Notes: a model not told the origin generated them from the letters alone. 64,000 nt of DNA from Mycobacteriaceae bacterium (GCA_019749805.1 JAIEPH010000021.1:41779-105778); one strand, 5' to 3'. Shown: positions 4,523 through 20,346, counted from the first letter of the stretch. Made by a program: numbers and translations.

Positions 4523-6438
4523 CGCAGGTCGTAATGCTCTTCGATGGGTGCACGGTGCTGATGCCACAGATCGACCAGTCGGTACGGAGTGGCCACCACG
4601 ACACGGCCCGAACCGGACCGGTAATACGTGTGCGCGTTCGGCGTGTGGCACCACACTGTGCCCGCCATCGCCTCGTCGATCGCGGCGACGTAGTCGTCGT
4701 GCGCTTGCTGCGTCACCTCGATCGCCGTCGCCCCGCGCAGTGCCATCAGTTGCAGGCATTCGATGATGTAGTGCGCCATCACTTCCATCGAGAAGTTCGC
4801 GCCCGCACCGTGGCCCGGACTGTAATTCGGTGCCGAGTTGATGAACAGGTTGGGGAAGCCGGGTACCGTGCCACCGCGATAGGCGCGGGGACTGTCGCCC
4901 CATTCGCCGGCGAGAGTGCGACCACCGCGGCCGCGAATGTCGATGGTCGACAGGAAGTCCAGGTGATAGCCGGTGGCGTAGATGATGACGTCGAGATCGA
5001 TTTGGCGACCGTCGGCCGTGACGATCCCCCGCTCGTTGACTTCGGCGGGCTCACTGGCCTCGACGTCGACGTGACTGCGGGTCAGTGCCGCGTAGTAGCC
5101 ACCCGGATCCCGGATGATGCGCTTACCGTACGGTGCGAAATCAGGTGTCACCTTCCTCGCCAATTCGCTGTCCGCCCCGAAGGTTCGGTCGATGTACTCC
5201 AGGCACATCTGCAGCAGCACGTCGTTGGCCGGTGAGATCGACAGGTGCTCACTTGCCCAATCCGGATCTTGCAGTATCACCGGATAGTTGTTGTCGGACG
5301 TGGCCCAGTACGACTTGAGCCGGTGCCAGTTCGCGTAGTACGGCACGTGGCGCCCCAGGTAGCGCCGAAACTCGGGCACGTCGTCGGTCGGCCGCTTACG
5401 CGGAGCGACCCAGTGCGGCTGGCGTTGGAAAACCGTCAGGTGCTCGACCTCATCGACGCAGGCGTCGACAATCTGCACGGCCGTACAGCCGGCGCCGATG
5501 ACCGCGACCCGCTTACCGGTGAGATCCAGCGACGAGTCCCACTGTGCCGAATGAATACTCGTGCCCGCGAAAGTGTCCCGGCCACCGACGTCGGGCCAGC
5601 GTGGACGGTTGAGGTATCCGGCGGCGGTGATCACCACGCGGTGATGGCTGATCCGACGATGGCCGTCACGATCCACCGTCTCGATGCGCCACTGACGTCG
5701 GTCTTCCTCCCATGTCAGCGCCTCGACCTCGGTGCCGAACCGGATGTGGTCGCGCAGTCTGTACTTGTCGGCCAGCGACACCAGGTAGGCCTGATACTCC
5801 GCGCCCTGCGGGTAGTAGCTCGTCCAGTCGGGATTGACCTCACGCGACAGCGAGTAATACGCCGACGGCGTATCCACACCGATCCCCGGGTAGGTCGTCG
5901 TCAGCCAGGTCCCACCGACTTCGTCGTTGCGGTCGAAGATCTCGTACGCGACACCGGCGTCCGCAACAGCGAACGCGGCGATCATCCCCGCCAGACCCGC
6001 GCCGATGATCGCCACACTCGTCGTCGCCGGGATCGGCACAGTGCGGGGCAATGTCGGCTGCGACAGCTGAAAGCCGCCCTGTTCGAGCAACAGCGGAACG
6101 AACTCGTCGTCGACCTCAGAGCCGAGCGCGAGCGGCAGCAACCGGGTGAACAGTTCCGGGTCGGCAACACGATGAGCTGACGGGCTGTCGAGCGCGTCGA
6201 GGACTGCCGATGCCAATATTTCAGCGGTCTTGGGGTCGGTGACCCCCGCCCGCTCGGGCGGGTCGGGCACGTGTGTAATCGCCGGCCCGAACCTGTCGAT
6301 CACCGACGCGTCGCCGGTGAGCTGAGCCAGCACCGCGACTAGCACACCCGGGTCGGCCTGTCGCAGGTTCGCGCGGAGCTCGACAGGATCGAACCCGGAA
6401 CGGGTGGTCGCCCGAACGGTTTCGGCATCAGTGGTCAC
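4519..6438 (-). CDS. Type I Baeyer-Villiger monooxygenase with N-terminal extension (HapE-like)
   Basis: Two Rossmann motifs (GAGLAG, GAGCTA), GGTW, the BVMO fingerprint FAGTSIHSAQW (FxGxxxHxxxW) and ATGY. GTG start inferred at 6438. Confidence 0.88.
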   Translation of the reverse strand: MTTDAETVRATTRSGFDPVELRANLRQADPGVLVAVLAQLTGDASVIDRFGPAITHVPDPPERAGVTDPKTAEILASAVLDALDSPSAHRVADPELFTRLLPLALGSEVDDEFVPLLLEQGGFQLSQPTLPRTVPIPATTSVAIIGAGLAGMIAAFAVADAGVAYEIFDRNDEVGGTWLTTTYPGIGVDTPSAYYSLSREVNPDWTSYYPQGAEYQAYLVSLADKYRLRDHIRFGTEVEALTWEEDRRQWRIETVDRDGHRRISHHRVVITAAGYLNRPRWPDVGGRDTFAGTSIHSAQWDSSLDLTGKRVAVIGAGCTAVQIVDACVDEVEHLTVFQRQPHWVAPRKRPTDDVPEFRRYLGRHVPYYANWHRLKSYWATSDNNYPVILQDPDWASEHLSISPANDVLLQMCLEYIDRTFGADSELARKVTPDFAPYGKRIIRDPGGYYAALTRSHVDVEASEPAEVNERGIVTADGRQIDLDVIIYATGYHLDFLSTIDIRGRGGRTLAGEWGDSPRAYRGGTVPGFPNLFINSAPNYSPGHGAGANFSMEVMAHYIIECLQLMALRGATAIEVTQQAHDDYVAAIDEAMAGTVWCHTPNAHTYYRSGSGRVVVATPYRLVDLWHQHRAPIEEHYDLR

Positions 6439-6484
6439 GACAACGGAGTATCGACGCCGCGTCGATGGCTGCGGGGGGTCATGT

Positions 6485-6499
6485 CTACTGAGCGGGACA
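6485..6499. promoter_or_regulatory. Candidate operator, copy 1 (divergent BVMO / acyl-CoA dehydrogenase promoter)
   Basis: ctactgagcgggaca; the same motif recurs at 16322, 18815 and 19478. Confidence 0.45.
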
Positions 6500-6539
6500 C
6501 TCATCGTCCTCGCAGTGCACGCGGGCCTACTCTGCGGCA

Positions 6540-7691
6540 ATGGATCGCGTGCATTACGAACCCGACCACCGCGCATTCGGAAAACTGGCCGGCGATTTTG
6601 CACGCAAGGAGGTCGCACCGTTCATTGCCGCCTGGGAGGACGCCGGGATCATTCCCCGTCAGGTGTTCGCCGAAGCTGGAGCCGTCGGGCTGCTGGGCTT
6701 TGCGGCCGGCGAACAATTCGGTGGCGTCGAAGCGCGTGATTTCCGCTACAACCAGATCCTGATCGAATCGTTCATGGATGCAGACTGCGGTGCTGTCGGT
6801 TTGAGTTTCGCGGTTCACAACGACATCTGCCTGCCCTATCTTGCCGACCTGTCCACCGCCGAACAACGCGCTCGGTGGCTGCCGGGCTTCGTTTCCGGAG
6901 ACCTCATCGCAGCCATCGGGATGACCGAGCCCGGCGCGGGCTCTGATGTGGCCGGAATCCGCACCGCGGCCGTCGACGCCGGCGATCACTTCTGCGTCAA
7001 CGGCGCGAAGACGTTCATCACCAACGGACAGAACGCCGATCTGGTGATCACCTGCGTGCGCACCTCAGCCGACAGGCACCGCGGCTTGACGCTGCTCGTG
7101 CTCGAGCGGGGTATGCCCGGCTTCGAGCGCGGCCGCAACCTGGACAAGCTCGGACTGCACTGCCAGGACACGTCGGAGCTGATCCTCACCGACGTGATGG
7201 TGCCGAAAGACAACGTATTGGGCGAGGTGGGGCGGGGATTCGAATATCTGATGCGGAATCTGCCGCAGGAACGGATGCAGATCGCGGTCGGCAGCCTCGG
7301 CCGCGCCCGCGCGGCGCTGCGCTGGACGATCGACTACGTGCGCGACCGCACCGCATTCGGTAAACCCATCGGCGCGCTGCAGAACACCCGCTTCGTCCTC
7401 GCCGACGTCGCCACCGAGGTATCGGTGGCCGAAGCGTTCGTCGACCGCTGCGTCGTCGAACTCAATGCCGGGCGGCTGTCACCCGCTGACGCCGCGAAAG
7501 CCAAGTTGTGGGCCACGGAGATGGAGTTCCGGTGTCTTGATTCCTGCCAGCAGCTGTTCGGCGGCTACGGGTACATGCGCGAATACCCCATCGCCCGCTC
7601 CGCGATCGACGCCAGGGTCACGCGCGTCTATGGCGGCACTTCGGAGATCATGCGCGAAATCATCGGCCGTGAACTGAACCTCGCGCAGTGA
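6540..7691 (+). CDS. Acyl-CoA dehydrogenase (LCAD-like)
   Basis: IGMTEPGAGSD, NGAKTFITNG, QLFGGYGYMREY and YGGTSEIM. Confidence 0.95.
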   Translation: MDRVHYEPDHRAFGKLAGDFARKEVAPFIAAWEDAGIIPRQVFAEAGAVGLLGFAAGEQFGGVEARDFRYNQILIESFMDADCGAVGLSFAVHNDICLPYLADLSTAEQRARWLPGFVSGDLIAAIGMTEPGAGSDVAGIRTAAVDAGDHFCVNGAKTFITNGQNADLVITCVRTSADRHRGLTLLVLERGMPGFERGRNLDKLGLHCQDTSELILTDVMVPKDNVLGEVGRGFEYLMRNLPQERMQIAVGSLGRARAALRWTIDYVRDRTAFGKPIGALQNTRFVLADVATEVSVAEAFVDRCVVELNAGRLSPADAAKAKLWATEMEFRCLDSCQQLFGGYGYMREYPIARSAIDARVTRVYGGTSEIMREIIGRELNLAQ

Positions 7692-9259
7692 AGGACGAAC
7701 GTATGCAGGTGCGCAGCCACACCCTCGGTGACATTCCACGCCGGACCGCCCGCAGACATCCGAACAAAGTCGCCCTCATCGATGGCGACGTCACGCTGAC
7801 CTTTGCCGAATTCGACGAGCTGGTCGACCGTGCGGCGGCCGCTCTGCGGGACAACGGGTTCGGGTCCGGTGACCGCGTGGCGTTGTTGGCGCACAACTGC
7901 TGGCAGTATGCGGTTCTGGCGTTCGCCACCGCCCGGGCGGGCGTCGTGCTCGTGCCGATCAACTTCATGCTCACCGCCGACGAGATCGCCTACATTCTGG
8001 GCCACAGCGGGGTCCGGGGATTCATCGTCGAACACGACCTGATCCCGACCGCGGACGCGGCGATGGCCCGCGCGGGGTCGGTGATCACCAAGGTCACCTT
8101 GAATGCCGATGGGCAGCGCGCACCGTACGGCTGGCATGACTTCGCGCATTGGCTGACCACCACCACTTCGCCGCCGGACGTCGAGATCGCCGATGATCAG
8201 TTGCTGCGCCTGATGTACACCAGTGGCACCGAATCGCGTCCCAAGGGGGTCATGCACTCCAGCCGCAGCCTGATGTCCAATTACGTCAGCACCATCGTGG
8301 CCGGGTCGATGTCGGAGGACGATATCGAGATTCACTCGATGCCGCTCTACCACTGCGCCCAGCTCGACAATTTCCTGGCGACCGACATCTACCTGGGCGC
8401 TACGAGCATCATCCTTCCGCGTCCTGATCCTGAGGTGATCTTGCGCAGCATCGGGGAACACGGAGCGACCAATTTCTTTGCCCCGCCGACCATCTGGATC
8501 AGCCTGCTGCGCTCGCCCATCATCGACAAGGTCGACCTGAGCAGCCTGCGCAAGGGCTACTACGGCGCATCGGCGATGCCCACCGAGATCCTGCTCGAGC
8601 TCCGCGAGCGCCTGCCCGACCTGCAGTTGTGGAACTTCTACGGTCAGACCGAGATGGGCCCCCTGGCAAGCGCATTGGGGCCCACCGATCAGGCGGACCA
8701 CGGCGGTGCGGCGGGCCGGCCCGCGATCAACGTCGAGACCACCATCCTCGACGACACAGATACCCCCGTTTCGGCGGGAACGGTCGGAGAGATCGCGCAC
8801 CGCGGGCCGCATCTCATGCTGGGTTACCTCGACGACCCGATGCACACCGCGGAAGCGTTCCGCGGCGGATGGTTTCATTCCGGAGACCTCGGCTACTACG
8901 ACGAGTTCGGGCTCCTGCACGTCGTCGACCGTAAGAAGGACATGATCAAGACGGGTGGCGAGAACGTCGCGAGCCGTGAGGTGGAGGAGGTGCTCTACCG
9001 GCATCCAGGCGTGGAAGAAGTCGCCGTGTTCGGTGTTCCGCATCCGGTCTGGGTGGAGGCTGTCGTCGCGGCAGTCGTCACGCGCGACGGCGTGAGCCCG
9101 ACCGAGGCTGAACTGCTCACCCACTGCCGCGACCACCTCGCCGGGTACAAGACGCCGAAGCAGGTCCACTTCGTCGAAGTGTTACCGAAGAACCCGAGCG
9201 GCAAGCTGCTCAAGCGTGATCTGCGCACCCGATTCGGCGAGCAGAACGTGTTCCACTGA
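7688..9259 (+). CDS. Acyl-CoA synthetase (AMP-binding, FadD-like)
   Basis: YTSGTESRPKG, YGQTE, GWFHSGDLG, DRKKDMIKTGGENV and PKNPSGKLLK. Alternative start at 7703. Confidence 0.95.
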   Translation: MKDERMQVRSHTLGDIPRRTARRHPNKVALIDGDVTLTFAEFDELVDRAAAALRDNGFGSGDRVALLAHNCWQYAVLAFATARAGVVLVPINFMLTADEIAYILGHSGVRGFIVEHDLIPTADAAMARAGSVITKVTLNADGQRAPYGWHDFAHWLTTTTSPPDVEIADDQLLRLMYTSGTESRPKGVMHSSRSLMSNYVSTIVAGSMSEDDIEIHSMPLYHCAQLDNFLATDIYLGATSIILPRPDPEVILRSIGEHGATNFFAPPTIWISLLRSPIIDKVDLSSLRKGYYGASAMPTEILLELRERLPDLQLWNFYGQTEMGPLASALGPTDQADHGGAAGRPAINVETTILDDTDTPVSAGTVGEIAHRGPHLMLGYLDDPMHTAEAFRGGWFHSGDLGYYDEFGLLHVVDRKKDMIKTGGENVASREVEEVLYRHPGVEEVAVFGVPHPVWVEAVVAAVVTRDGVSPTEAELLTHCRDHLAGYKTPKQVHFVEVLPKNPSGKLLKRDLRTRFGEQNVFH

Positions 9260-9308
9260 CCGGGCACAGCCATTCCCCGGGAGAGCTTTTGGGAGTTCAC
9301 TCACTCGC

Positions 9309-9794
9309 ATGAGTGACGACATCACGCTGTCTGAGATCCAGGAATTCATCGCCGGGTTCTGGTACCACTACGACCAGGGCCACTTCGACGAGCTGGCCAC
9401 CCGAATCGGTGACGAGATGGAGTACCTGAGCCGGTCCGATTCCGGCCACTGCCCGTTCGAGGATCTGTTGGCGGCCGAACTGCACGGTGGCGCCGAGACG
9501 CTGGCGTGGCTCACGCAGCACCGGAACGAGAACCCCTACCCGCTGCGCCATCACGCGACCAACATCTTCCGTACCGGTAGCGATGGTGCCGTGACCGATG
9601 CGCGCTTTTATCTGTACGTCAATCAGATCACCAATAATGTCCCGTTCGACGTCTCCAGCGGCGTCGTCGATGTCGGGATACGGCGGGCCGGTGATGGCCT
9701 GGTGTTCACGTCGATGAGGGTGGTGCTCGACGCCGAGGATTCGATTCCCTTTGCCGAACACAGCGCGAAGAGTGCGGCCACGGCAGGCACATGA
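9309..9794 (+). CDS. NTF2-like / SnoaL-like domain protein
   Basis: 161 aa with 'IQEFIAGFWYHYDQGHFDELA' and 'LRHHATNI', typical of the SnoaL fold. Its stop overlaps the next start. Confidence 0.7.
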   Translation: MSDDITLSEIQEFIAGFWYHYDQGHFDELATRIGDEMEYLSRSDSGHCPFEDLLAAELHGGAETLAWLTQHRNENPYPLRHHATNIFRTGSDGAVTDARFYLYVNQITNNVPFDVSSGVVDVGIRRAGDGLVFTSMRVVLDAEDSIPFAEHSAKSAATAGT

Positions 9795-10639
9795 GCGCAC
9801 CCTTCGGCGGCGGAGTCGCCGTGATCACGGGCGCCGGTGCGGGCATTGGCGCCGGTTTGGCCCGCCATGCGGCCGAGCTCGGCATGACGGTGGTGCTGGC
9901 CGACATCGACGCCGACGCGGTTGCGGCGCTTCGAGACGAGCTCACCAGGGCGGGCATAGTCGCCATTGACGCAGTCTGCGATGTCCGCGATCCGGGGGCC
10001 GTATCGGCGCTCGCCGAGAGGGTGTACCGCGACGTCGGTCCGGTGCGGCTGCTTATCAACAACGCAGGCATCGAGCAGTTCGGATATCTCTGGGATACGC
10101 CCGTCGAGAACTGGAATCGACTGGTCGATATCAACATCAGCGGAGTCTTCCACGGTGTGCGAGCCTTCCTTCCGCTGATGATCGAGGCTGGGGAGCCTGC
10201 TTGGGTGTGGAACCTGTCGTCCATCGGTGGAGTCGCCGTCGTCCCGCTGCAGGCGCCCTACATCATGAGCAAGCACGCGGTGTTGGCGCTCACCGAGTGC
10301 CTACGGCTGGAGGTAGAACTGGCCGGCCACGAGCACATTCACGTCCAGGCGGTGCTGCCGGGGGCCGTCGTGTCGAACATCTTCGAGTCAGCGGGTGGGG
10401 TGACCGACGGCGACGTGGTAGCAGCCGAATCCCAGCGTGCGGCCATGCTCGACATCAAGGCCGATGCGATGGATCCGCGCGCCGCCGCCGAGGCGGTGTT
10501 CGAACAGGCCGCCGAAGGGCGGTTCTATCTTCTGACGCAGCCGGACTATGTCGGCTCGGCGATGGCTGAACGTGCCAATGTGCTTGCCTCTCAACAACCC
10601 CCGAAGTTGCGCACGCAACGCCGATTCGATCCCGCGTGA
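9791..10639 (+). CDS. SDR family oxidoreductase
   Basis: TGAGAGIG, NNAG and YIMSK. Confidence 0.93.
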   Translation: MSAPFGGGVAVITGAGAGIGAGLARHAAELGMTVVLADIDADAVAALRDELTRAGIVAIDAVCDVRDPGAVSALAERVYRDVGPVRLLINNAGIEQFGYLWDTPVENWNRLVDINISGVFHGVRAFLPLMIEAGEPAWVWNLSSIGGVAVVPLQAPYIMSKHAVLALTECLRLEVELAGHEHIHVQAVLPGAVVSNIFESAGGVTDGDVVAAESQRAAMLDIKADAMDPRAAAEAVFEQAAEGRFYLLTQPDYVGSAMAERANVLASQQPPKLRTQRRFDPA

Positions 10640-11577
10640 CCGCTCCGCAGCTCGATCCCGATGCAGCCGAGCGCGTCGCCTCGTTCGGTGAAATGCCGCC
10701 CATGCGTGAACGAGGTCTCGACGCGATCCGGGAGGCCATCGAAACCGCTCCGCTGCCCGAGACGATGCCTGAAATGGCGGCGGTCGACGATTGCGCCGCA
10801 CCGGCCCCCGCCGGGCCGGTGCCGCTGCGGATCTACCGACCCACCGCCGACGCCAATGCGCCGGTGTTGGTGTACTTCCACGGCGGCGGCATGGTGATGG
10901 GCTCCAATCACTCGTTCGAGCCGCTGGCGCGAACGCTTGCCGCCCAATCCAACGCCACCGTGGTGTCGGTGGACTACCGGCTCGCTCCAGAGTTCCCCGC
11001 ACCTGCTCAGTTCGACGATGCATTCAGGGCCACCGAATGGGTTGCGGAACACGCGCAGCAGATCGGTGCCGACGTCACACGACTGGCGGTCGTCGGCGAC
11101 AGCGCGGGTGGCTCGCTGGCCGCGGCGGTGGCGCTCGCGTCCCGCGACCGCGGTGGTCCCGCCATCTGCTGTCAAGTGCTGCTCTACCCGGGCCTCGACC
11201 GCGATATGGCCGTGGCGTCGATCGCCGCACTTGCAGATGCCCCGATGCTCAGCCGCGACGACATCGTCTACATGCACGAGCTCGCCGACGCCGGCGGCGC
11301 ACCGCACGACCAATTCCGGGTGCCGGCCTCTGCGACCGATTTGAGTGGCCTTCCGCCCGCCATCGTCGTCACCGCCGAATGCGACCCGATCCGCGACTGG
11401 GGTGAGCGCTACGCATTACGCCTGCGGGATGCGGGGGTTCAAACCACCCTCACGCGCTATCCGGGCGCCTACCACGGTTTCCTCATGCGATCGGATGCCA
11501 CCGCCCGCGGAAGGCTGGCGATCGCGGAAGTCGGCGGACTTTTGCGCGCGAAATTCGCTCATCCGCTGCTTTTCTGA
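10636..11577 (+). CDS. Alpha/beta hydrolase (HSL/family IV esterase)
   Basis: HGGG, GDSAGG, DPIRD and HGF. Confidence 0.92.
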   Translation: MTAPQLDPDAAERVASFGEMPPMRERGLDAIREAIETAPLPETMPEMAAVDDCAAPAPAGPVPLRIYRPTADANAPVLVYFHGGGMVMGSNHSFEPLARTLAAQSNATVVSVDYRLAPEFPAPAQFDDAFRATEWVAEHAQQIGADVTRLAVVGDSAGGSLAAAVALASRDRGGPAICCQVLLYPGLDRDMAVASIAALADAPMLSRDDIVYMHELADAGGAPHDQFRVPASATDLSGLPPAIVVTAECDPIRDWGERYALRLRDAGVQTTLTRYPGAYHGFLMRSDATARGRLAIAEVGGLLRAKFAHPLLF

Positions 11578-11672
11578 GCACTCGGAACGGGTCTCCCGAT
11601 CACCGGACATCCGGCAGTTCGACAACCGGATCAAGCCACAGAATCAGATCAACCGAGAAAACAGGAGACGAG

Positions 11673-12749
11673 ATGCTCACCGATCAGCGACGTTTGGAGC
11701 TGTCCGACGTTCTGCGCCCTGCCGCGAAGCCGATTGAGATCGACGGCGTCTACACCGACGATCAACGCGACCGACTGCTCGACGTCGTCCGCACCCAGGG
11801 ACCGTGGAAGTTGATCATCGCTCAGCATTTCGCGTCGGCCGATGAGCTGATGGCGACGATGAGCGGCGCATTCCCCGAGGGCTTCACCCCCTCGCTGGAT
11901 CTCTTCCTGACGCCCACCTTCCGTGGCTATCTCGCAAACTATGGAGCGGTGCTTCACCCCGAACTGCACGACTGCTTCTACAACGAGAAGTTTCTCCAGA
12001 TGGCGAAGCGCTACTGGGACGCCGAATACGCGAAGCCTGAATTGATGTTGTTCAACATCAACGGGCCCTGCGCCAACCGCGACCCGGGTCATCTGGATTC
12101 TCCGAGCTTCCGCGGCATCCGCCACGAGAATGCACCAACCTGGCTGTGCAGCGTGATGGGAAAGTCAGGTCTGTTCACCGACTATCTGATCAAGATGGCC
12201 CAGGTGATCACGTGGTTCTCGCTCGATGAGGGCAGCGGATTCACGTACTGGCCAGACGGTCCCCTCAAGGCGCCGCAGCGCCTGTTGCCCCCCGTTTACA
12301 ACCGCGGCGTGGTGGTGCAGAACGAGATGATGGTCCACCGCGGGGAAGCCAACGGCCCACTCGACCAGCAGACTCCCGCGGACCTGACTTTCGACACGGT
12401 GTTCACCGGTGATCCCGCGGACCGCGACCTGTGGCTGCTCAAGAACGGCGACGACGTGATCGCCCGCCACCACACCGATGAACTGCGCTTCCTGGTGCAC
12501 TGGTCGGCCGAAGTGTTCTCCGACTACGACGAACTCAAGAAGAACATGGACGGTTCGGACGATCTGACCGCCGACAAGGCCATCGACATGATGGTCGACG
12601 ACTTGAGCCGCAAGGGTGTCAAGCTCGACATTCCCAGCGAGCCGATGCACGATCCGGGCTTCATCGGCGCGCTCAACGCGGCCTACGACCTGGGCGGACC
12701 GGCGGCATATCCAGAGGAGGCGCCGATCAGCGCCTTCCAACTGACCTGA
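11673..12749 (+). CDS. Hypothetical protein with a putative Fe(II)/2-oxoglutarate dioxygenase-like HxD...H signature
   Basis: 358-aa ORF with strong GC3 bias and RBS aggag. The CDS itself is well supported; the fold call is inference from GHLD, QVITWF, GSGFTYWPDG and NRGVVVQNEMMVHRG. Confidence 0.8.
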   Translation: MLTDQRRLELSDVLRPAAKPIEIDGVYTDDQRDRLLDVVRTQGPWKLIIAQHFASADELMATMSGAFPEGFTPSLDLFLTPTFRGYLANYGAVLHPELHDCFYNEKFLQMAKRYWDAEYAKPELMLFNINGPCANRDPGHLDSPSFRGIRHENAPTWLCSVMGKSGLFTDYLIKMAQVITWFSLDEGSGFTYWPDGPLKAPQRLLPPVYNRGVVVQNEMMVHRGEANGPLDQQTPADLTFDTVFTGDPADRDLWLLKNGDDVIARHHTDELRFLVHWSAEVFSDYDELKKNMDGSDDLTADKAIDMMVDDLSRKGVKLDIPSEPMHDPGFIGALNAAYDLGGPAAYPEEAPISAFQLT

Positions 12750-12761
12750 TAGCCGCGACCT

Positions 12762-13193
12762 ATGGAATGCGAGTGCGTCGAGCGTCAACAGATCATCGAT
12801 GTTCTCAATAGGTACGCGACGTGTCTCGACACACGAGACTGGTTGGGCCTGAATGACGTATTTCATCCGCGGGCCGTGGGCATCTACGCTGTCACGCGCA
12901 ACGGGCGCGCGGAGATTGTGGATTCCATCCGCAGTTTCCTCGGCGGTTGCGGGCCATCGCAACACCTCCTCGGCAACTACCAGATCGCGATCGACGGCGA
13001 CGAAGCGCAATCCTCGACCAAGGCTCGGGTGCTGCACGTCGGGGCCGGAGATCGCGCACACCTGACCCCGTACGAGGCGATCGGCGTCTACCGCGATCGT
13101 CATCTGCGTACAACCGACGGATGGCGAATCATTCACCGTCACTTCGACGTCCATATCACGATCGGTGACATCAACGTCCTCCGCCCGGGCTGA
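12762..13193 (+). CDS. NTF2-like SnoaL_4 protein (BaiE/LinA/scytalone dehydratase-like)
   Basis: 'IIDVLNRYATCLDTRDW', 'SQHLLGN' and 'GWRIIHR'. Confidence 0.8.
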   Translation: MECECVERQQIIDVLNRYATCLDTRDWLGLNDVFHPRAVGIYAVTRNGRAEIVDSIRSFLGGCGPSQHLLGNYQIAIDGDEAQSSTKARVLHVGAGDRAHLTPYEAIGVYRDRHLRTTDGWRIIHRHFDVHITIGDINVLRPG

Positions 13194-13206
13194 AGGGAAC
13201 GAATTC

Positions 13207-13989
13207 ATGCAGAGGTTCGACGACCGAAGGATCATCGTCACCGGAGCCGGCTCAGGAATCGGACAGGCGACCGTCACCCGTCTGCTCGACGAGGGCGGCA
13301 CCGTCGTGGCCTTCGACGTGTCCATCGAAGGTCTTGCGGCGACCGCGGCTGCTGCAGAAGAGGCCGGCACGGGTAAGCGGCTGACGACCGCCGTGCTGGA
13401 CATCTCGGACGAGGTTGCGGTGGGTACCGAGGTGGCAACGGCGATCAACACGCTCAACGGGCTGGATGTGCTCGTCAACGCCGCGGCCATTCAGCTCTGT
13501 GCAAACACCCACGAACACACCCTTCACGATTGGAACACCACGCTGGCGATCAACCTGACGGGCACGTTCTTGATGACGCGGGCTTCGCTGCCCGCGCTCA
13601 TCGACTCGGGCCGCGGAGTGGTGATCAACTTCACCTCCACCGCAGCGACTTTCGCGCATCCGTACATGGCCGCGTACGCCGCGAGCAAGGGCGGCGTCCT
13701 GGCGCTCACGCACTCCTTGGCGCTGGAGTACTCAAAACAGGGGCTTCGGGCGGTCAACATCCAGCCAGGTGGGGTGTCGACGGCGTTGGCCAACAGCACC
13801 CTCGACAAGATGCCCGAAGGATATGACCTCGGTCTGTGGGCAAAACAGACTCCGCTGCTGCACGGTGAGGAAAGCGAAATCCTCGGCGACCCCAGTGCCG
13901 TCGCGGCCGTGATTGCCATGGTGGCGTCCGACGATGGCCGGTTCATCACCGGCACCGAAATCCGAGTCGACGGCGGTGCGCACGCCTGA
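13207..13989 (+). CDS. SDR family oxidoreductase
   Basis: TGAGSGIG, YAASK and ITGTEIRVDGG. ATG at 13207 follows the RBS gaaggga. Confidence 0.93.
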   Translation: MQRFDDRRIIVTGAGSGIGQATVTRLLDEGGTVVAFDVSIEGLAATAAAAEEAGTGKRLTTAVLDISDEVAVGTEVATAINTLNGLDVLVNAAAIQLCANTHEHTLHDWNTTLAINLTGTFLMTRASLPALIDSGRGVVINFTSTAATFAHPYMAAYAASKGGVLALTHSLALEYSKQGLRAVNIQPGGVSTALANSTLDKMPEGYDLGLWAKQTPLLHGEESEILGDPSAVAAVIAMVASDDGRFITGTEIRVDGGAHA

Positions 13990-13992
13990 GGC

Positions 13993-14799
13993 TCAGCGCA
14001 CCACCACTGAACTGGGCTCGCGCGGCGCACCCATCATGTCGCGGTGCGACGGCGGCTGCCTGCCGTCCTCGTCGGTGATGCCGTAGCGCTGCGCGATCTC
14101 CGCGCCGATCACCGTACGGCCGGACAGCTCGGCGAGGTCGGGATCGCGATACAGCGCGTCGATCACATGCCCGGTGAATTCGGGAGTTTCGGCGTGCTCG
14201 GCCGTCTTCGCCAGCGCCTCGGGATGGCCGTCAAACGCGGCACGGAGGCGCTCGGTGAGCAGGATGCCCATCCAGATCGACACCGTGACCACCCCGGTGT
14301 CGCGGAAGTCGACCGCCATGTCGGCGGCCATCTTGTCGACGCCGGCCTTCTGGGCGCCGTAGGCCGGACCGTGCATGTAGCACACCGACCCCGGCGACGA
14401 GGTGAATGCGATCAGACCTCGGCCCCGGCGCACCAGCAGCGGCGCGGCATGCCACGACGCGACGTACGCCGACCGCAGCCCGACGTCAAGAACATCGGCG
14501 AGTTCGAGTGCCTTCTCCCAGAACGGCTTTGGATTGACCAGCTCGTCGGATATGGCTGCGGCGTTGTTCACCAAAAGGTCCAACCCGCCGTTTTCCTCTT
14601 CCACGCGCTTGAACAACTGGGCTACCGCGTCGTCGTCGCGGTGGTCGACCTTCACGGCGATACCGCCGTCACCCGGGTCGCGCACGGTCCTGCCGGTCAG
14701 ATACACCCGCCACCCGTCAGCGACGAGCGCGGCCGCGATGCCACGTCCCGCGCCGCGGCTGGCACCCGTCACGACCGCCACCGGTGGAATGTCTTTCAC
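13993..14799 (-). CDS. SDR family oxidoreductase (DHRS1-like)
   Basis: TGASRGAG, VNNA and YGAQK. Confidence 0.9.
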   Translation of the reverse strand: MKDIPPVAVVTGASRGAGRGIAAALVADGWRVYLTGRTVRDPGDGGIAVKVDHRDDDAVAQLFKRVEEENGGLDLLVNNAAAISDELVNPKPFWEKALELADVLDVGLRSAYVASWHAAPLLVRRGRGLIAFTSSPGSVCYMHGPAYGAQKAGVDKMAADMAVDFRDTGVVTVSIWMGILLTERLRAAFDGHPEALAKTAEHAETPEFTGHVIDALYRDPDLAELSGRTVIGAEIAQRYGITDEDGRQPPSHRDMMGAPREPSSVVVR

Positions 14800-14809
14800 A
14801 GGATCGAAG

Positions 14810-15100
14810 TTACGTGCTCACCCGTGCTGATTCATCGACCACCGGCAGATCGCCGGTGCGGACCGCGTCGATGATGGAGCCGTTCAGCGCTGAGCAGGCC
14901 AGGAACAGGCCGCGCTCCGCATGCTCGGTCAAGTGCTCGGCGTCGCGGCGTTCCAGACAGCGGGCGGAGGCGTCGGCATTCCACTGCACGCTGGTTTGAT
15001 TCCAGCTGCTCTTTCGCGCCTGCACGCACGCACCGCAACGGCGGCAGCCCACCGACACCATCGGAGCGTCGGCGAGTCGGTTGTCGGGCCGAACGGCCAT
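14810..15100 (-). CDS. Small Cys-rich protein coupled to kshA (family often auto-annotated 'ferredoxin')
   Basis: 96 aa, MAVRPDNRL...CRRCGAC...RC...AC. Its ATG shares one base with the kshA stop (TGATG). Confidence 0.7.
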   Translation of the reverse strand: MAVRPDNRLADAPMVSVGCRRCGACVQARKSSWNQTSVQWNADASARCLERRDAEHLTEHAERGLFLACSALNGSIIDAVRTGDLPVVDESARVST

Positions 15101-16281
15101 CAGACGCTTCCCGACCTCGCCGCTTGAGAGCTGATGTTCTCGTCGACGACCTTCATCCACTCCTCGTACGGGCTGGTGGTGTCGAGTTCGTATTCGAAGC
15201 GGTCCACCATGTCAGGCTCGACATCGGCGGCATCGACGTAGAACTGCTCGTACCACCGGCGCAACTGGTAGACGGGTCCGTCCTCCTCGCACAGCAGCGG
15301 ATTGTCGATGCGGGCCTTGTTCTTCCAGATCTCGACATCCTGCTCGAAACCCACCTTGACCCAATCGCCTAGCGCGATCGCCGCTTGCAGCGCCGCATCG
15401 CCGGGCAGCGCCTCCGACTTCTTGACGATGATGCCGTACTGCAGCACAAAGGAATTGGCGTCGATCGGGTAATGGCAGTTGATCAGAACCGTGTTCTGAT
15501 CGTCGTTCTCGAAGTGGTAGGTCAGGTCGTCGATCATGAACGACGGGCCGAAGTACGAGGCCACCGAGGTGGTACCGAGCAGCCGAGGCTGTCCCTCGGG
15601 ATTGGGGATGTCACCGCGCGAGCCACCGTTCATGTACTGCGTGGCGACGTGGCCCTCGAAGATGTTCTTGAAGTGCGTCGGCAGCGAACCGTGAATGTAG
15701 AAGAAGTGCGCCATGTCGACGACGTTGTCGATGATCTCGCGGCAGTTGGTGTTGACGACGGTGGTGTACCAATGCCAGTCGGTCCACTCGTCACTCGTCG
15801 CTCCCTCGATCCGAGGTATGGCGACCTCGTCGGGCGGCGGATTCTTCTCGGGGTCGTTCCAGACGAACAGCATGCCGTCCTGTTCGAGGGTGGTCCACGT
15901 CGCGGTGCGGGCCAGCCGCGGCGTCCGCTTGCTGTAGGGCACCTTCTTGCATCGGCCGTCGCCGCCCCATCGCCAGTCGTGGAACGGGCAGGCGATCTCG
16001 TCGCCCTTCACGGTGCCCTGGCTGAGGTCCCCGCCCATGTGACGGCAGTAGCCGTCGAGCACGTTGATCTTGCCGTCGCCGCTGCGGAACACCACCAGCT
16101 TCTGGCCGAAGGCGCTCACCGAATGCGGCTCGCCGTCGCCGAAGTCCCTGGTCAACCCCAGGCAGTGCCATCCGCGCGCGAACCTGGTCGGTGCTGCTGC
16201 TGCTTCGATCTGCCGAATCTCGTCGGTCTGATCGTCGGCTCGGCCGACGGTGGCTTCTGCGGTCCCTGGCTGCGACGTCAT
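15100..16281 (-). CDS. kshA: 3-ketosteroid 9alpha-hydroxylase oxygenase subunit (Rieske)
   Basis: RFARGWHCLG, Rieske CRHMGGDL...CPFHDW, mononuclear Fe motif DNVVDMAHFFYIH, and QDVEIWKNK. Start MTSQPG inferred. Confidence 0.95.
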   Translation of the reverse strand: MTSQPGTAEATVGRADDQTDEIRQIEAAAAPTRFARGWHCLGLTRDFGDGEPHSVSAFGQKLVVFRSGDGKINVLDGYCRHMGGDLSQGTVKGDEIACPFHDWRWGGDGRCKKVPYSKRTPRLARTATWTTLEQDGMLFVWNDPEKNPPPDEVAIPRIEGATSDEWTDWHWYTTVVNTNCREIIDNVVDMAHFFYIHGSLPTHFKNIFEGHVATQYMNGGSRGDIPNPEGQPRLLGTTSVASYFGPSFMIDDLTYHFENDDQNTVLINCHYPIDANSFVLQYGIIVKKSEALPGDAALQAAIALGDWVKVGFEQDVEIWKNKARIDNPLLCEEDGPVYQLRRWYEQFYVDAADVEPDMVDRFEYELDTTSPYEEWMKVVDENISSQAARSGSV

Positions 16282-16321
16282 AACCTCGTTGTACGCCCGC
16301 GACACGGCCTGTGGAGCCAAT

Positions 16322-16336
16322 CGTCCCGCTGGGAGG
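16322..16336. promoter_or_regulatory. Candidate operator, copy 2 (divergent kshA / kstD promoter)
   Basis: The reverse strand reads cctcccagcgggacg. Confidence 0.45.
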
Positions 16337-16381
16337 GAAAATCCTCCGCAGCCGCGATCCCCCCGACCTACTGTTGAAGCC

Positions 16382-18097
16382 GTGACGACTGCTGCGCCCA
16401 CCACCGTTCCCGCCGGGATGCCCCTGCGCGATACGACCGTCGATCTGCTCGTCGTGGGATCGGGCACCGGCATGGCTGCCGCGCTGGCGGCCGCCGAGCG
16501 CGGTCTGAAAGTGCTAATCGTCGAGAAATCGCCGTACGTCGGCGGTTCCACCGCACGGTCCGGCGGAGCCCTGTGGATTCCCGCGACGCAGGTGCTCGAG
16601 GAGAACGGCGCCGGCGACACCGCGCAAAAGGCGCGGACCTACCTCGATTCGGTGGTCGCAGGGACCGCTCCGCCGCAACGGTCGGCGGAGTTCGTCACCC
16701 AGCTTGCGGCGACGGTCGAGATGCTGCGCCGCACCACACCGATGCGGTTCACATGGGCGCGCGACTATTCCGATTACCACCCAGAGCATCCCGGGGGAAG
16801 CGCCGACGGGCGGACGTGTGAATGCAGGCCGTTCAATGCATCGCTACTCGGCCAGTACCGGTCGCTGCTGCGCCCGGGATTGATGGAGCCGAAGATCCCG
16901 ATGCCCACCACAAGTGCGGACTATCGCTGGATGAACCTGATGGCACGCGTACCACGAAAAGGCTTGCCGCTCATCGTCAAACGATTGGCCCAGGGCTTAG
17001 GCGGCCTGATGCTCGGCCGGCGCTACACCGCCGGCGGACAGGCGCTGGCCGCAGGCTTGTTCGCGGGCGTCCTGCGCGCGGGCATCGGCGTGTGGACGCA
17101 GACCGCGCTGGTGCGGCTGATCACCGACGGCGACAGGGTCACCGGCGCCGTCGTCGCACACGACGGACGCGAGGTCACCGTCGAAGCACGACGCGGCGTC
17201 GTGCTGGCCGCGGGCGGCTTCGACCACAACATGGACATGCGGTGGAAGTTCCAGTCCGAGTCACTCGGCGAGCACACCAGCCTCGGCGCAGAAACCAACA
17301 CCGGCGACGCGATCCGCATCGCCCAAGATGCCGGTGCCGGAATCGACTTGATGGATCAGGCCTGGTGGTTCCCCGCGGTGGCGCCGCTGCCGGGGGCGGA
17401 TCCGCTGGTGATGCTCGCCGAACGATCGCTGCCGGGCTCGCTGATCGTCGACCAGACGGGGCAGCGGTTCACCAATGAGGCCAGCGATTACATGTCCTTC
17501 GGCCAGTGTGTGCTCGCGCGCGAGCGTGCCGGTAACCCCGTCGAGTCCATGTGGATCGTCTTCGACCAGCAGTACCGCAACAGTTACGTCTTTGCCGCGG
17601 ACCGTTTTCCGCGGATGAGCCTGCCGCGGGCGTGGTACGACGCGGGCATCGCGCATCGGTCCGAGGATTTCGCTGAGCTCGGGCGGATGATGAAGGTGCC
17701 CGAGGCGCAGTTCGTCGCCACGGTCTCCCGATTCAACGAGATGTCGCGCGCTGGAGACGATTCCGACTACGGCCGCGGACGTAGCGCGTACGACCGCTAC
17801 TACGGCGATCCCACCATCACCCCGAACCCGAATCTGCGCCCGCTCGACCACGCCCCGTTCTATGCGGTCAAGATGGCGCTCAGCGACCTCGGTACGTGCG
17901 GCGGTCTGCGCGCCGACGAGCGCGCCCGGGTGCTGCGCGAAGATGGTACCGCCATCGGAGGGCTGTATGCGATCGGCAACACCGCCGCGAATGCGTTCGG
18001 AGCCACCTACCCCGGTGCGGGTGCGACGATCGCGCAGGGTCTGGTGTACGGATACATTGCCGCCCTGGACGCCGCCCTGGACGCCGCCGCGACGTGA
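16382..18097 (+). CDS. kstD: 3-ketosteroid Delta1-dehydrogenase
   Basis: DLLVVGSGTG, GGSTARSGGALWIP, YDRYYGDPT, DLGTCGGL and TYPGAGATI. GTG start at 16382 inferred. Confidence 0.92.
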   Translation: MTTAAPTTVPAGMPLRDTTVDLLVVGSGTGMAAALAAAERGLKVLIVEKSPYVGGSTARSGGALWIPATQVLEENGAGDTAQKARTYLDSVVAGTAPPQRSAEFVTQLAATVEMLRRTTPMRFTWARDYSDYHPEHPGGSADGRTCECRPFNASLLGQYRSLLRPGLMEPKIPMPTTSADYRWMNLMARVPRKGLPLIVKRLAQGLGGLMLGRRYTAGGQALAAGLFAGVLRAGIGVWTQTALVRLITDGDRVTGAVVAHDGREVTVEARRGVVLAAGGFDHNMDMRWKFQSESLGEHTSLGAETNTGDAIRIAQDAGAGIDLMDQAWWFPAVAPLPGADPLVMLAERSLPGSLIVDQTGQRFTNEASDYMSFGQCVLARERAGNPVESMWIVFDQQYRNSYVFAADRFPRMSLPRAWYDAGIAHRSEDFAELGRMMKVPEAQFVATVSRFNEMSRAGDDSDYGRGRSAYDRYYGDPTITPNPNLRPLDHAPFYAVKMALSDLGTCGGLRADERARVLREDGTAIGGLYAIGNTAANAFGATYPGAGATIAQGLVYGYIAALDAALDAAAT

Positions 18098-18769
18098 TCA
18101 CGCGTCGTCGGCGTCGGCCTTCTTCTCGATCTCGTACCAGTAATCCGGTGCAGGCCAAGGGACTTTCGTTCGTCCGCCGTCGCCGACGCGCGGGAACTCG
18201 GCTTCGGCCTCATCGAGTTCTTTGATCATCTTCAGCGTCAGCTCGCGCTCGTTCGCGTAGTAGCGCTCAGCCCAGTTCAGCGCAACGCGCGCATAGGCCC
18301 ACGTGGTGTCGGCTTTAGCCCACTTCGCGTCTTTGGCTGCGCTCCGGTACATCTCGTCAACCCAGGCGAGGTGCTCCTGCAGGATCTCCTTGAGCCGTGC
18401 GGGGTTCGTGAGATGCCCCAGCGTCACTCGCAGCAGAGGAGAGTGCTTGAGAACAGGCGGGTCGAGCGGCGCATCGTTCGCCCACCGCGTGACCGCATCC
18501 AGGCCGGCCTCGGTGATCTTGTACAACCTTCGGCTGCGAGCACCGCTGCTGTTGTCGAACCGCGACGTCACCAGGCCGAGCTGCTCGAGCTTCTTGAGTT
18601 CTGAGTAGATCTGGCTGTAGGCGGGGCTTCCGTAGAAGAAGCGCATACTCCAGTCGATCCACTTTCGGATGTCGTAGCCCGACAACTCGTATTCGTACGA
18701 AAGCATGCCGAGGAGCGCCCAGCTGGTAGCCGCGAGATTCGGCTTGCCCGGCAGATCGCTTCCTTCCAC
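18098..18769 (-). CDS. PadR family transcriptional regulator
   Basis: 'ALLGML...SGYDI...SQIYSELKKLEQLGLV...RRLYKITEAG'. GTG start at 18769 inferred. Confidence 0.92.
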   Translation of the reverse strand: MEGSDLPGKPNLAATSWALLGMLSYEYELSGYDIRKWIDWSMRFFYGSPAYSQIYSELKKLEQLGLVTSRFDNSSGARSRRLYKITEAGLDAVTRWANDAPLDPPVLKHSPLLRVTLGHLTNPARLKEILQEHLAWVDEMYRSAAKDAKWAKADTTWAYARVALNWAERYYANERELTLKMIKELDEAEAEFPRVGDGGRTKVPWPAPDYWYEIEKKADADDA

Positions 18770-18814
18770 GTTTTTCAGACTAACAACACAGGTCACAGGC
18801 TCTAGTCGAACTCA

Positions 18815-18829
18815 CCACTGGGCGGGACA
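18815..18829. promoter_or_regulatory. Candidate operator, copy 3 (divergent padR / thioesterase promoter)
   Basis: ccactgggcgggaca. Confidence 0.45.
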
Positions 18830-18890
18830 TTCCGTTGCGGACCGCTTGTCTTGCGGCCAAGGTGAATGGACACCCGATCGAAGGAGTCCG

Positions 18891-19472
18891 ATGACGACCG
18901 ACGCACACGAACGCCTGACCGCGTCGGTGCGTCGTCTGATCGACGCCACCATCCGCAGTGAAGTCGATGCGGCGGCCATCGCGGCCGCAACCGACAAGAT
19001 CGAGGCCGCGACGGCTCAGTTGAGCGACTCGCTGATACCGGGATCGTTCGGAGTCCAGACCACCCCCGACGGGCGCTCGATCGCGTTGGGCAATGTGGTG
19101 ATCGGCCGTCGCAATCCGATCGCGCCCCCCTTGGTCATTGAACATGAGGCCGATGGCGCAGTACGCACCGACTTTGTGCTCGGTGCCGCGTACGAGGGAC
19201 CGCCGGGCCATGTCCATGGCGGCGTGTGCGCGTTGATCCTCGACCACGTCCTCGGCGCCACCGCACACAAACCAGACCAGCCCGCCGTCACCGGCACGCT
19301 GACGCTGCGTTACATCCGCGGCACACGTCTTGGCCAGCGCCTTCGCGCGCAGGCGCAGGTCGATCGAATCGACGGAACGAAGACCTTCGCGGTCGGAAGT
19401 ATCACCGACTCCGAGGGCGTGACAGTCGAGGCAGAGGGCATCTTCATCCATCCGAGGAATACGCGGTGGTGA
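18891..19472 (+). CDS. PaaI family (hotdog-fold) thioesterase
   Basis: YEGPPGHVHGGVCALILDHVLG, with RBS aaggag before the ATG at 18891. Confidence 0.9.
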   Translation: MTTDAHERLTASVRRLIDATIRSEVDAAAIAAATDKIEAATAQLSDSLIPGSFGVQTTPDGRSIALGNVVIGRRNPIAPPLVIEHEADGAVRTDFVLGAAYEGPPGHVHGGVCALILDHVLGATAHKPDQPAVTGTLTLRYIRGTRLGQRLRAQAQVDRIDGTKTFAVGSITDSEGVTVEAEGIFIHPRNTRW

Positions 19473-19477
19473 CAGGC

Positions 19478-19492
19478 CCACGGAGCGGGACA
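19478..19492. promoter_or_regulatory. Candidate operator, copy 4 (upstream of SDR 19533)
   Basis: ccacggagcgggaca. Confidence 0.45.
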
Positions 19493-19532
19493 AACGGCTG
19501 ACACCCCGCCGTTTTCACGCGAGTATCTGCCT

Positions 19533-20336
19533 ATGCCTCTTCAGCGATACAACGATCGTCGAGTCCTGATCACCGGCGGCGGCTCCGGGATCGGTCAAGC
19601 AACCGTGCTGCGGATCCTGGACGAAGGGGGCCGGGTGGCGGCGGCGGACGTGAGCGAGTCCGGTTTGAAGGACACCGTCGCCAGGGCCGAGCCGCACCGC
19701 GACCGGCTCACGGCGGTGGTCCTCGACGTGTCCAGTGAGGAGTCCGTCAAACAGGGCGTGGCGCAGGCCGTCGAAGCGCTCGGAGGTCTCGACGCGCTCG
19801 TGAACGCCGCGGGGATATTGCGCTCGGTGCACTTTCTCGAAACCACGCTCGCCGATTTCGAACAGGTGCTGCGGATCAATCTGATCGGCACGTTCCTGAT
19901 GACGCGAGAGGCCATCCCCGCGTTGCGCAACGGCACCGACCCTGCCGTCGTCAACTTCAGCTCTACCTCCGCGGCCTTCGCGCACCCTTACATGTCCGCC
20001 TACGCAGCGTCCAAGGGTGGGATTCAAGCGATGACCCACACGCTCGCGCTGGAGTTCGCGAAGGAGCGCATCCGGTTCAACTCGGTTCAGCCCGGCTCGA
20101 TCTCGTCCGGAATGACCGACGGCACCGGCGAATCCAAACAGAGCATCGGTCCCGGACTGCCCGCCGACGCCGACTTCTCGCTGTTCGGCAAGATCATGCC
20201 GACCCTCCCGGTGGACGGCGGCGGTATGTTCGCCAAGCCGGATGCCGTCGCCGCTGTGGTGGCGATGCTCGCCTCCTCGGATGCCTATTTTGTGACGGGG
20301 ACCGAGGTGCGAGTCGACGGCGGAACCCACATGTAA
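19533..20336 (+). CDS. SDR family oxidoreductase (paralog of 13207-13989)
   Basis: TGGGSGIG, NAAG, YAASK and VTGTEVRVDGG. Confidence 0.93.
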   Translation: MPLQRYNDRRVLITGGGSGIGQATVLRILDEGGRVAAADVSESGLKDTVARAEPHRDRLTAVVLDVSSEESVKQGVAQAVEALGGLDALVNAAGILRSVHFLETTLADFEQVLRINLIGTFLMTREAIPALRNGTDPAVVNFSSTSAAFAHPYMSAYAASKGGIQAMTHTLALEFAKERIRFNSVQPGSISSGMTDGTGESKQSIGPGLPADADFSLFGKIMPTLPVDGGGMFAKPDAVAAVVAMLASSDAYFVTGTEVRVDGGTHM

Positions 20337-20346
20337 CGTGCTTCCA

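Follow-up and report, generated by a model that had tools for sequence, protein, structure and literature searches.

A shared operator-like element at the promoters of a mycobacterial C-19 steroid-catabolism island and its predicted PadR-family regulator

We analyzed a 64,000-nucleotide (nt) stretch of DNA from a Mycobacteriaceae bacterium (GCA_019749805.1, JAIEPH010000021.1:41779-105778; this whole stretch is called the window here), whose positions 1-21,400 are, by their predicted gene content, a C-19 (4-androstenedione-type) steroid-catabolism island of a Mycolicibacterium. The promoters of this island share an 18-bp degenerate dyad with the consensus TsyCC-N8-GGGACA, composed of one strong half-site (AGCGGGACA) and one weak one. 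From its sequence, placement and conservation, this element is almost certainly a genuine cis-regulatory site, and we favor, with some reservation, the PadR-family regulator encoded within the island as the factor that binds it. The sites would then be the predicted operator, and the genes behind them the predicted regulon, of the PadR of the mycobacterial C-19 steroid cluster. In the searchable literature, we found no earlier description of an operator for this PadR or of a steroid regulator of the IclR family.

Sequence and conservation of the element

The initial annotation listed four near-identical 15-mers, all of which were found exactly: ctactgagcgggaca at 6485-6499 (plus strand), cctcccagcgggacg on the reverse strand of 16322-16336, ccactgggcgggaca at 18815-18829 (plus strand), and ccacggagcgggaca at 19478-19492 (plus strand). 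It assigned them to all three divergent promoters of the island and to one further intergenic gap, a distribution that holds after revision of the start codons. The gaps are those between the genes for a Baeyer-Villiger monooxygenase (BVMO, minus strand) and an acyl-CoA dehydrogenase (ACAD, plus strand) at 6439-6539, between kshA (minus) and kstD (plus) at 16282-16381, between padR (minus) and a thioesterase gene (plus) at 18770-18890, and between the thioesterase gene and a short-chain dehydrogenase/reductase (SDR) gene at 19473-19532. The list was incomplete, since two conserved copies and the fixed spacing of about 50 bp between sites and start codons had been overlooked. As 18-bp sites, the six copies are S1 (TGTCTACTGAGCGGGACA, 6482-6499, centered at 6490.5 in the BVMO/ACAD gap), S2 (CGTCCCGCTGGGAGGGAA, 16322-16339, in the kshA/kstD gap; TTCCCTCCCAGCGGGACG as the reverse complement aligned on the strong arm), S3 (TCACCACTGGGCGGGACA, 18812-18829, in the padR/thioesterase gap), S4 (GGCCCACGGAGCGGGACA, 19475-19492, in the thioesterase-SDR gap), and the two additional copies S5 (TCTCCCGATCACCGGACA, 11592-11609, with the matrix match at 11594-11608, between an esterase gene and a gene coding for 358 amino acids [aa]) and S6 (TGTTCCACTGACCGGGCA, reverse complement TGCCCGGTCAGTGGAACA, 9249-9266, with the matrix match at 9251-9265, overlapping the stop codon of an acyl-CoA ligase gene).

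With the strong arm as anchor, the six sites of the window and five classes of orthologous sites all fit the consensus, and C4, C5, G13, G14, and A16 are shared by all classes. The values in the class-weighted matrix are 0.99 for C4, 0.73 for C5, 0.73 for C12, 0.78 for G13, 0.99 for G14, and 0.94 for A16. Positions 4/15 and 5/14 form complementary pairs in most classes (0.9-1.0 in S3 and S5), while the outer pairs are partly complementary. The dyad can also be read as 6-6-6, or as 6-7-6 at kshA/kstD (S2 needs a 7-bp spacer), but a 5-8-5 arrangement fits pairs 4/15 and 5/14 better. The earlier description of an operator-like degenerate palindrome with one conserved arm is thus borne out (C4, G14, and A16 are all at least 0.94), with its alignment essentially kept. 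The element had also been described as unlike the box of the cholesterol regulator KstR, and indeed no match to that palindrome (TnnAACnnGTTnnA) is present in the island; its single match in the window, at 32281, lies outside the island and is probably intragenic.

The recurrence of the motif had been judged non-random, which we confirmed, although not through the count of its GCGGGAC heptamer: this word is not enriched in the 64-kb window (21 occurrences versus 31.6 +/- 5.8 expected from shuffles). Within the same window, AGCGGGAC was found 7 times versus 3.8 expected, and the degenerate 15-mer pattern of the initial annotation, which was defined post hoc, 4 times versus 0.11. The statistical weight rests instead on placement, conservation, and spacing. 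We built a 15-bp position weight matrix exclusively from orthologous sites in other genomes, leaving the window out and weighting the classes equally. This matrix ranks S1, S3, and S2 first to third among about 128,000 window positions, S6 fourth, S5 fifth, and S4 seventh (score, 12.3). Of the seven matches that scored at least 12 (2.96 expected by shuffling), six fall in non-coding island gaps, roughly 1% of the window in all. When matrices were built from two classes and used to find the third, the omitted site ranked 8th, 33rd, and 18th of the about 128,000 positions. Single-class matrices of 29 bp failed to detect the other classes because the flanks carry class-specific signal; shorter cores and the leave-one-class-out matrices succeeded.

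For the comparison with orthologous loci, we used 77 padR loci, 42 ACAD loci, more than 100 loci with the S1 16-mer, and 78 padR loci of 20 kb. Apart from the start codons, a TAnnnT-like hexamer that precedes them by 6-8 nt, and one block containing the 15-mer, orthologous gaps are poorly conserved. S1, S2, and S3 are strongly kept at orthologous positions. The S1 block (TGTCTACTsAGCGGGAsAC) is present in 33 of 34 BVMO/ACAD gaps, and 52 more mycobacterial loci, slow growers included, have the exact S1 16-mer adjacent to a BVMO gene; the other 28 matches listed for this 16-mer are chance occurrences in unrelated taxa without homologous neighbors. The S2 block (CGTyCCGC-T-N5-GGGA) is kept in 60 of 61 kshA/kstD gaps, and the S3 block (TCCCGnCCAGyGGT) is found upstream of padR in 74 of 77 genomes. 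The two additional copies behave in the same way: S5 is kept in 25 of 27 orthologous gaps, along with a -10 hexamer CAnAAT, and the S6 block (TGTTCCACTsAnCGGnC) in 56 of 58 upstream regions, independently of which gene lies upstream. The same pattern recurs in the 78 padR-centered loci, including an assembly labeled M. abscessus, with sites between the thioesterase gene and padR, between kstD and kshA, before the 358-aa gene, before the SnoaL-like gene, and beside the BVMO gene.

S4 has a different history. Its sequence and spacing are as expected for the motif, but as a conserved copy it is restricted to the window and three other loci (L001, L007, and L011). Elsewhere (L010, L013, L014, L017, and L075), an extra kstD-like gene lies between the thioesterase and SDR genes, and a 23-bp segment at S4 is homologous to the 3' end of this gene; the lineage of the window seems to have lost it from the 19473-19532 gap. 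We considered reading S4 as an unconserved relic of the lost gene, but this was softened, since each of the four loci that share the segment has retained a good motif (scores, 12-17), the spacing is 49.5 bp, and analogous, non-homologous sites are common in many genomes at the same position after the thioesterase gene. The probability of a matrix match of at least 12 in this 60-bp gap is about 0.003. From these data, S4 is a probable lineage-specific operator. A hairpin (AACGGC-N9-GCCGTTTT, 19493-19516) lies 3' of the thioesterase stop codon, between S4 and the -10 hexamer of the SDR gene; it is a weak terminator-like structure, conserved in the closest relatives only.

Taken together, these results leave little room for a GC-rich word recurring by chance in DNA of high G+C content, which we consider a negligible prospect. 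It is true that GCGGGAC is not over-represented and that about three matrix matches of at least 12 are expected in 64 kb, of which S4, by score alone, could be one. However, five positions are conserved in tens of genomes at constant spacing, and the top matches are concentrated in about 1% of the window; for S1, S2, S3, S5, and S6, chance is refuted by their conservation. One further motif-like 15-mer (GATTGCTCAGCGGTA, minus strand, 4501-4515), at the junction of the BVMO gene and an SDR gene, was rejected as an operator even though it is conserved in relatives. It lies inside the N-terminal codons of the SDR (TRLLSGK) and is hence a coding coincidence; the SDR start codon overlaps the BVMO stop codon (ATGA) in this region (4501-4522).

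Position of the element relative to promoters

Most genes of the island look leaderless, lacking a Shine-Dalgarno sequence and having a conserved TAnnnT-like hexamer 6-8 nt upstream of the start codon (starts at 6438, 6540, 9309, 16281, 16382, 18769, and 19533). Relative to the longest open reading frames, this moved the starts of five genes: BVMO from 6618 to 6438, SnoaL from 9216 to 9309, kshA from 16620 to 16281, kstD from 16250 to 16382, and padR from 18796 to 18769. With these starts, the distances from dyad center to start codon become nearly uniform. For S1, they are 52.5 bp to the GTG of BVMO (6438) and 49.5 bp to the ATG of ACAD (6540); for S2, 49.5 bp to the ATG of kshA (16281) and 51.5 bp to the GTG of kstD (16382); and for S3, 51.5 bp to the GTG of padR (18769). 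S6 lies 51.5 bp upstream of the revised ATG of SnoaL (9309), and S4 lies 49.5 bp upstream of the ATG of the SDR gene (19533). Two genes stand farther away, and both have a Shine-Dalgarno sequence: the thioesterase gene, with its ATG (18891) 70.5 bp from S3, and the 358-aa gene, with its ATG (11673) 72.5 bp from S5. S5 is about 50 bp from the transcription start site predicted from a conserved -10 hexamer (CAGAAT, 11639-11644; CAnAAT in orthologues), transcription start sites having been inferred throughout from conserved hexamers. A leader of about 21 nt would thus account for the two larger distances, the spacing to the predicted transcription starts (about 11651 for the 358-aa gene and about 18870 for the thioesterase gene) being again about 50 bp.

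Orthologous loci keep this geometry. Measured from the center of the 15-bp matrix, which is about half a base off the center of the 18-bp dyad, to the start codon, the distance is 49-52 bp in 66 of 74 padR orthologues, 50-51 bp in 31 of 33 ACAD orthologues, 49-52 bp in 54 of 60 kstD orthologues, and 50-52 bp in 52 of 56 SnoaL orthologues. It is also retained when the gene order changes: S2 remains 50 bp upstream of kstD where another gene replaces kshA, and a kstD gene preceded by an esterase gene still has a site 50 bp upstream. Since the promoters are not homologous to one another, the spacing of about 50 bp reflects a functional constraint. In genomes without the ACAD and ligase genes (L196, L125, L126, L135, L155, and others), the BVMO gene directly faces the SnoaL-like gene and S1 and S6 stand in tandem, 35 bp apart from center to center, each keeping its distance to the gene that it precedes. 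This suggests, as judged from the gene order, that both operators already existed when the ACAD-ligase pair was inserted, or lost, between them.

One operator in the middle of a gap, with start codons about 101 bp apart, is common to two divergent promoters. Such a placement at -50, midway between divergent leaderless genes, is an unusual architecture, and its strictness merits mechanistic study. To our knowledge, a single dimer site midway between leaderless starts about 101 bp apart, acting as a compact bidirectional module, has not been described for mycobacteria.

A constant position relative to the -10 hexamer could also be expected of an element, in the core promoter or upstream of it, that RNA polymerase itself reads, for example an UP-like element or the -35 (GGAAC or GGGAC) of an extracytoplasmic function (ECF) sigma factor, which GGGAC and GGAAC do resemble. 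However, the element is dyad-like, is used in both orientations, and lies about 29-30 bp, edge to edge, from the TAnnnT hexamers, too far for a -35/-10 pair. The ECF version was discarded, as a 61-sequence alignment contained no conserved GTT or CGT -10 element 16-19 bp downstream in either direction; CGTGTC follows the motif in the window but is not conserved among orthologues. We judge a promoter element highly improbable as the source of the motif, and a promoter element and chance, taken jointly, are still only a slight prospect.

PadR and IclR as candidate regulators

Two regulators are encoded in the island, padR and iclR. PadR is a 223-aa protein of subfamily 1, of a size that fits two domains, an N-terminal winged-helix PadR domain (PF03551, E = 8e-10, 39 bits versus a cut-off of 27) and a C-terminal domain for dimerization; its homologues are annotated as PadR, and its best relatives in the PDB are AphA (1yg2) and the PadR of B. 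subtilis (5x11 and 6jyi). In the alignment with 5x11, the tyrosines of SGYDI and SQIY are kept and an arginine occupies the position of Lys67, giving a Tyr/Tyr/basic version of the DNA-binding triad (Tyr/Tyr/Lys) defined for PadR proteins (PMC5728393). The padR gene looks leaderless, with a -10 hexamer TAGTCT at 18777-18782 that is conserved together with the start codon. This promoter has an extended -10 (TGTTAGTCT), which fits a promoter that needs repression and not activation.

IclR had originally been put forward as the binder, a view that we do not favor. Upstream of iclR, the motif is absent from all 17 regions (that of the window scores at best 1.2 with the matrix, and a hit of at least 9 was obtained in only 1 of the 17 orthologous regions), while it is present in padR's own promoter in 74 of 77 upstream regions. 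Instead, all 17 iclR upstream regions carry a different palindrome, AT-rich and of odd length (9-1-9), with the consensus ATATnnCTAnTAGnnATAT. In the window, this is ATATTTCTATTAGTCATAT at 878-896, just downstream of the iclR promoter and its -10, where it is unique (0.01 expected). The promoter itself (850-913) is a conserved GTGACA-N17-TGnTAcaa followed by the palindrome, which often appears as two tandem copies in relatives. In the scanned loci, ATATnnCTAnTAGnnATAT occurs upstream of iclR, besides two matches with 2 mismatches elsewhere (L119 and L210), and from this distribution it is probably the autoregulatory operator of IclR. By the usual rule of comparative genomics, in which a regulator is matched with the conserved palindrome found at the gene that encodes it, the GC-rich motif is assigned to PadR and the AT-rich palindrome to IclR.

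The genetics of the homologous cluster point in the same direction, as M. smegmatis grows on 4-androstenedione (4-AD) only without KstR or without the PadR-family repressor of the cluster (PMC9546629). The effector of this PadR was still unknown in 2022, and there are no KstR boxes before these M. smegmatis genes (PMC9546629). We propose that the six sites are operators of one transcription factor that would run the island. PadR would control its own promoter and the operons of kstD, kshA, BVMO, ACAD/ligase, SnoaL, the 358-aa gene, and SDR, while the role of IclR would be confined to its own small operon. A PadR dimer would occupy the sites and keep the island repressed until a steroid-derived effector releases it. 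Repression from -58 to -43 may be achieved by occupying the approximately 30 bp between back-to-back RNA polymerases or, alternatively, by blocking upstream contacts between polymerase and DNA at promoters that have no -35.

Several observations weigh against PadR as the binding factor. Operators of known PadR repressors overlap the core promoter, and no such overlap with -35, -10, or +1 was found here, the centers being 49.5-52.5 bp upstream of the predicted starts. A position of -50 +/- 1.5 bp at non-homologous promoters is typical of activators that touch RNA polymerase. In addition, the half-site TGTCCC is unlike the ATGT or ATAT half-sites of characterized PadR proteins. Phyletic patterns fail to separate the two candidates, because iclR and padR co-occur in every genome in which both ends of the island are visible. 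Nor is there informative covariation between helix and site, because the recognition helix of PadR (SPAYSQIYSELKKLE) is nearly invariant in the aligned orthologues. In the locus with the most divergent PadR (L067, 62% identity), the sites at 3931-3945 and 5839-5853 read CGGAA and not CGGGA, and the recognition helix has Y-to-H and K-to-R changes; this is an anecdotal hint, from a single genome, of possible covariation between protein and site.

The position at -50 is also the starting point of a different scheme, in which IclR would be an activator at the GC-rich motif and PadR would repress the island indirectly, acting on iclR by way of the AT-rich palindrome in its promoter. Activation of padR by IclR would then provide negative feedback. 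If this were true, a cascade from PadR through IclR to the six promoters would run the 4-AD island. An unvarying position of about -50, seen at eight promoters, is activator-like, kshA (TACAAC) and SnoaL (TTCACT/TTGACT) have poor -10 hexamers, the ATAT...ATAT arms of the palindrome recall the box of AphA, a PadR-family protein, and the genetics (expression upon loss of PadR) are equally compatible. The IclR-type regulator GenR of C. glutamicum reportedly uses ATTCC-N7(5)-GGAAT sites for both activation and autorepression. However, the scheme is less parsimonious, as neither regulator would autoregulate through the conserved palindrome of its own promoter, and the motif is missing before iclR in all 17 genomes. 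IclR boxes are usually of odd length (7-1-7), and an even-length, spaced dyad is closer to PadR operators. Good TAnnnT -10 hexamers at padR, ACAD, and kstD, together with the extended -10 at padR, should make an activator unnecessary. We therefore regard the cascade as unlikely.

A half-site that matches no characterized PadR or IclR operator could finally mean that neither protein recognizes the motif and that it is bound by a global or otherwise unlinked regulator encoded outside the island. We find this improbable, since high-scoring sites in the 64-kb window are almost confined to the island (six of the seven at 12 or above), and the motif travels with padR and its neighbors through many rearrangements and is kept in the padR promoter of nearly all genomes (74/77).

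Related systems and gene content of the island

PadR, as the predicted binder, belongs to a family with characterized operators, such as CNTGNA-N6-TNCANG of B. subtilis PadR (PMC5728393) and the ATATGCA-N6-TGCATAT box of Vibrio AphA (PMC3440409). The window PadR is a relative of both, whose dimers read 18-20 bp dyads with half-sites 6 bp apart. The dyad of the window can be read with half-sites about 12 bp apart, as in the operators of PadR subfamily 1, but the match is weak and 5-8-5 fits better. Unlike in B. subtilis PadR and AphA, its half-site is GC-rich, only one half-site is strong, and its center is at -50 rather than on the core promoter. As in the mycobacterial cholesterol regulon of the TetR-family regulators KstR and KstR2, a short palindromic operator stands before many steroid operons, several of them divergent, whereas operator sequence (TnnAACnnGTTnnA for KstR) and regulator family differ. 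KstR sites overlap core promoters. The IclR box of E. coli is TGGAAATnATTTCCA, and with IclR-family boxes the element shares a TyCC...GGrA flavor and the -50 placement common among IclR-type activators. It differs from them in being an even-length spaced dyad and in having no copy at iclR, which has its own odd-length AT-rich palindrome at +1.

Among the closest known systems is the PadR-repressed C-19+/4-AD cluster of M. smegmatis and M. abscessus, which has the same thioesterase-padR-kstD-kshA neighborhood (for M. smegmatis by description). The window comes from another species. We take the PadR gene of the M. smegmatis cluster to be MSMEG_2868. That of M. abscessus is named mab_0082c; a protein labeled M. 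abscessus (P0106) is 78% identical to the window PadR, and its locus has the motif in five equivalent gaps. In the industrial bioconversion of steroids by mycobacteria, yields are limited by this PadR-controlled cluster (PMC5962712), which also provides M. abscessus with a second steroid pathway. With an 18-bp operator defined and at least six target promoters listed, the regulon can be tested directly; the operator could also serve in the design of biosensors or reporters and in effector screens, and point mutations in it could derepress or silence the genes cleanly. The analysis also yielded a revised map of the island's promoters, most of them leaderless.

Island genes were called by domain searches, several start codons being revised afterward. 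Clustered kstD and kshA paralogues, a PadR regulator, and the lack of KstR boxes identify the island, by sequence, as a C-19+/4-AD cluster, a layout described for M. smegmatis, M. neoaurum, and M. abscessus (PMC5962712, PMC9546629). Its core consists of the adjacent genes kshA (KshA-like Rieske oxygenase with KshA_C and Rieske domains, 15100-16281, minus strand), kstD (KstD-like dehydrogenase with a FAD_binding_2 domain, 16382-18097, plus strand), and padR (PadR domain, Pfam PF03551, 18098-18769, minus strand), whose synteny is kept in 78 loci. Beyond padR, on the plus strand, are the genes for the thioesterase (18891-19472), an SDR (19533-20336), and a dehydrogenase (20338-21399).

At the other end, the plus strand carries the 3' end of a gene for a KstD-like flavoprotein (2-748), iclR (914-1741), an esterase gene (about 1750-2673), and a Dabb-domain gene whose 3' end is at 3638. 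An SDR gene (3635-about 4522) and the BVMO gene (4519-6438) follow on the minus strand. A long series on the plus strand comprises the genes for ACAD (6540-7691), acyl-CoA ligase (7688-9259), a SnoaL-like protein (9309-9794), an SDR (9791-10639), an esterase (10636-11577), the 358-aa protein (11673-12749), which has no Pfam match, a second SnoaL-like protein (12762-13193), and an SDR (13165-13989), with one more SDR gene on the minus strand (13993-14799).

The genomes of the closest relatives are those of Mycolicibacterium tusciae, M. gadium, and M. gallinarum, and the G+C content of the window is 66%. Contigs nearly identical to positions 15000-20400 came from metagenomes of drinking water and biofilms and from one metatranscriptome; no transcript ends could be read from them. 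By this occurrence, the source organism is presumably a mycobacterium of water systems.

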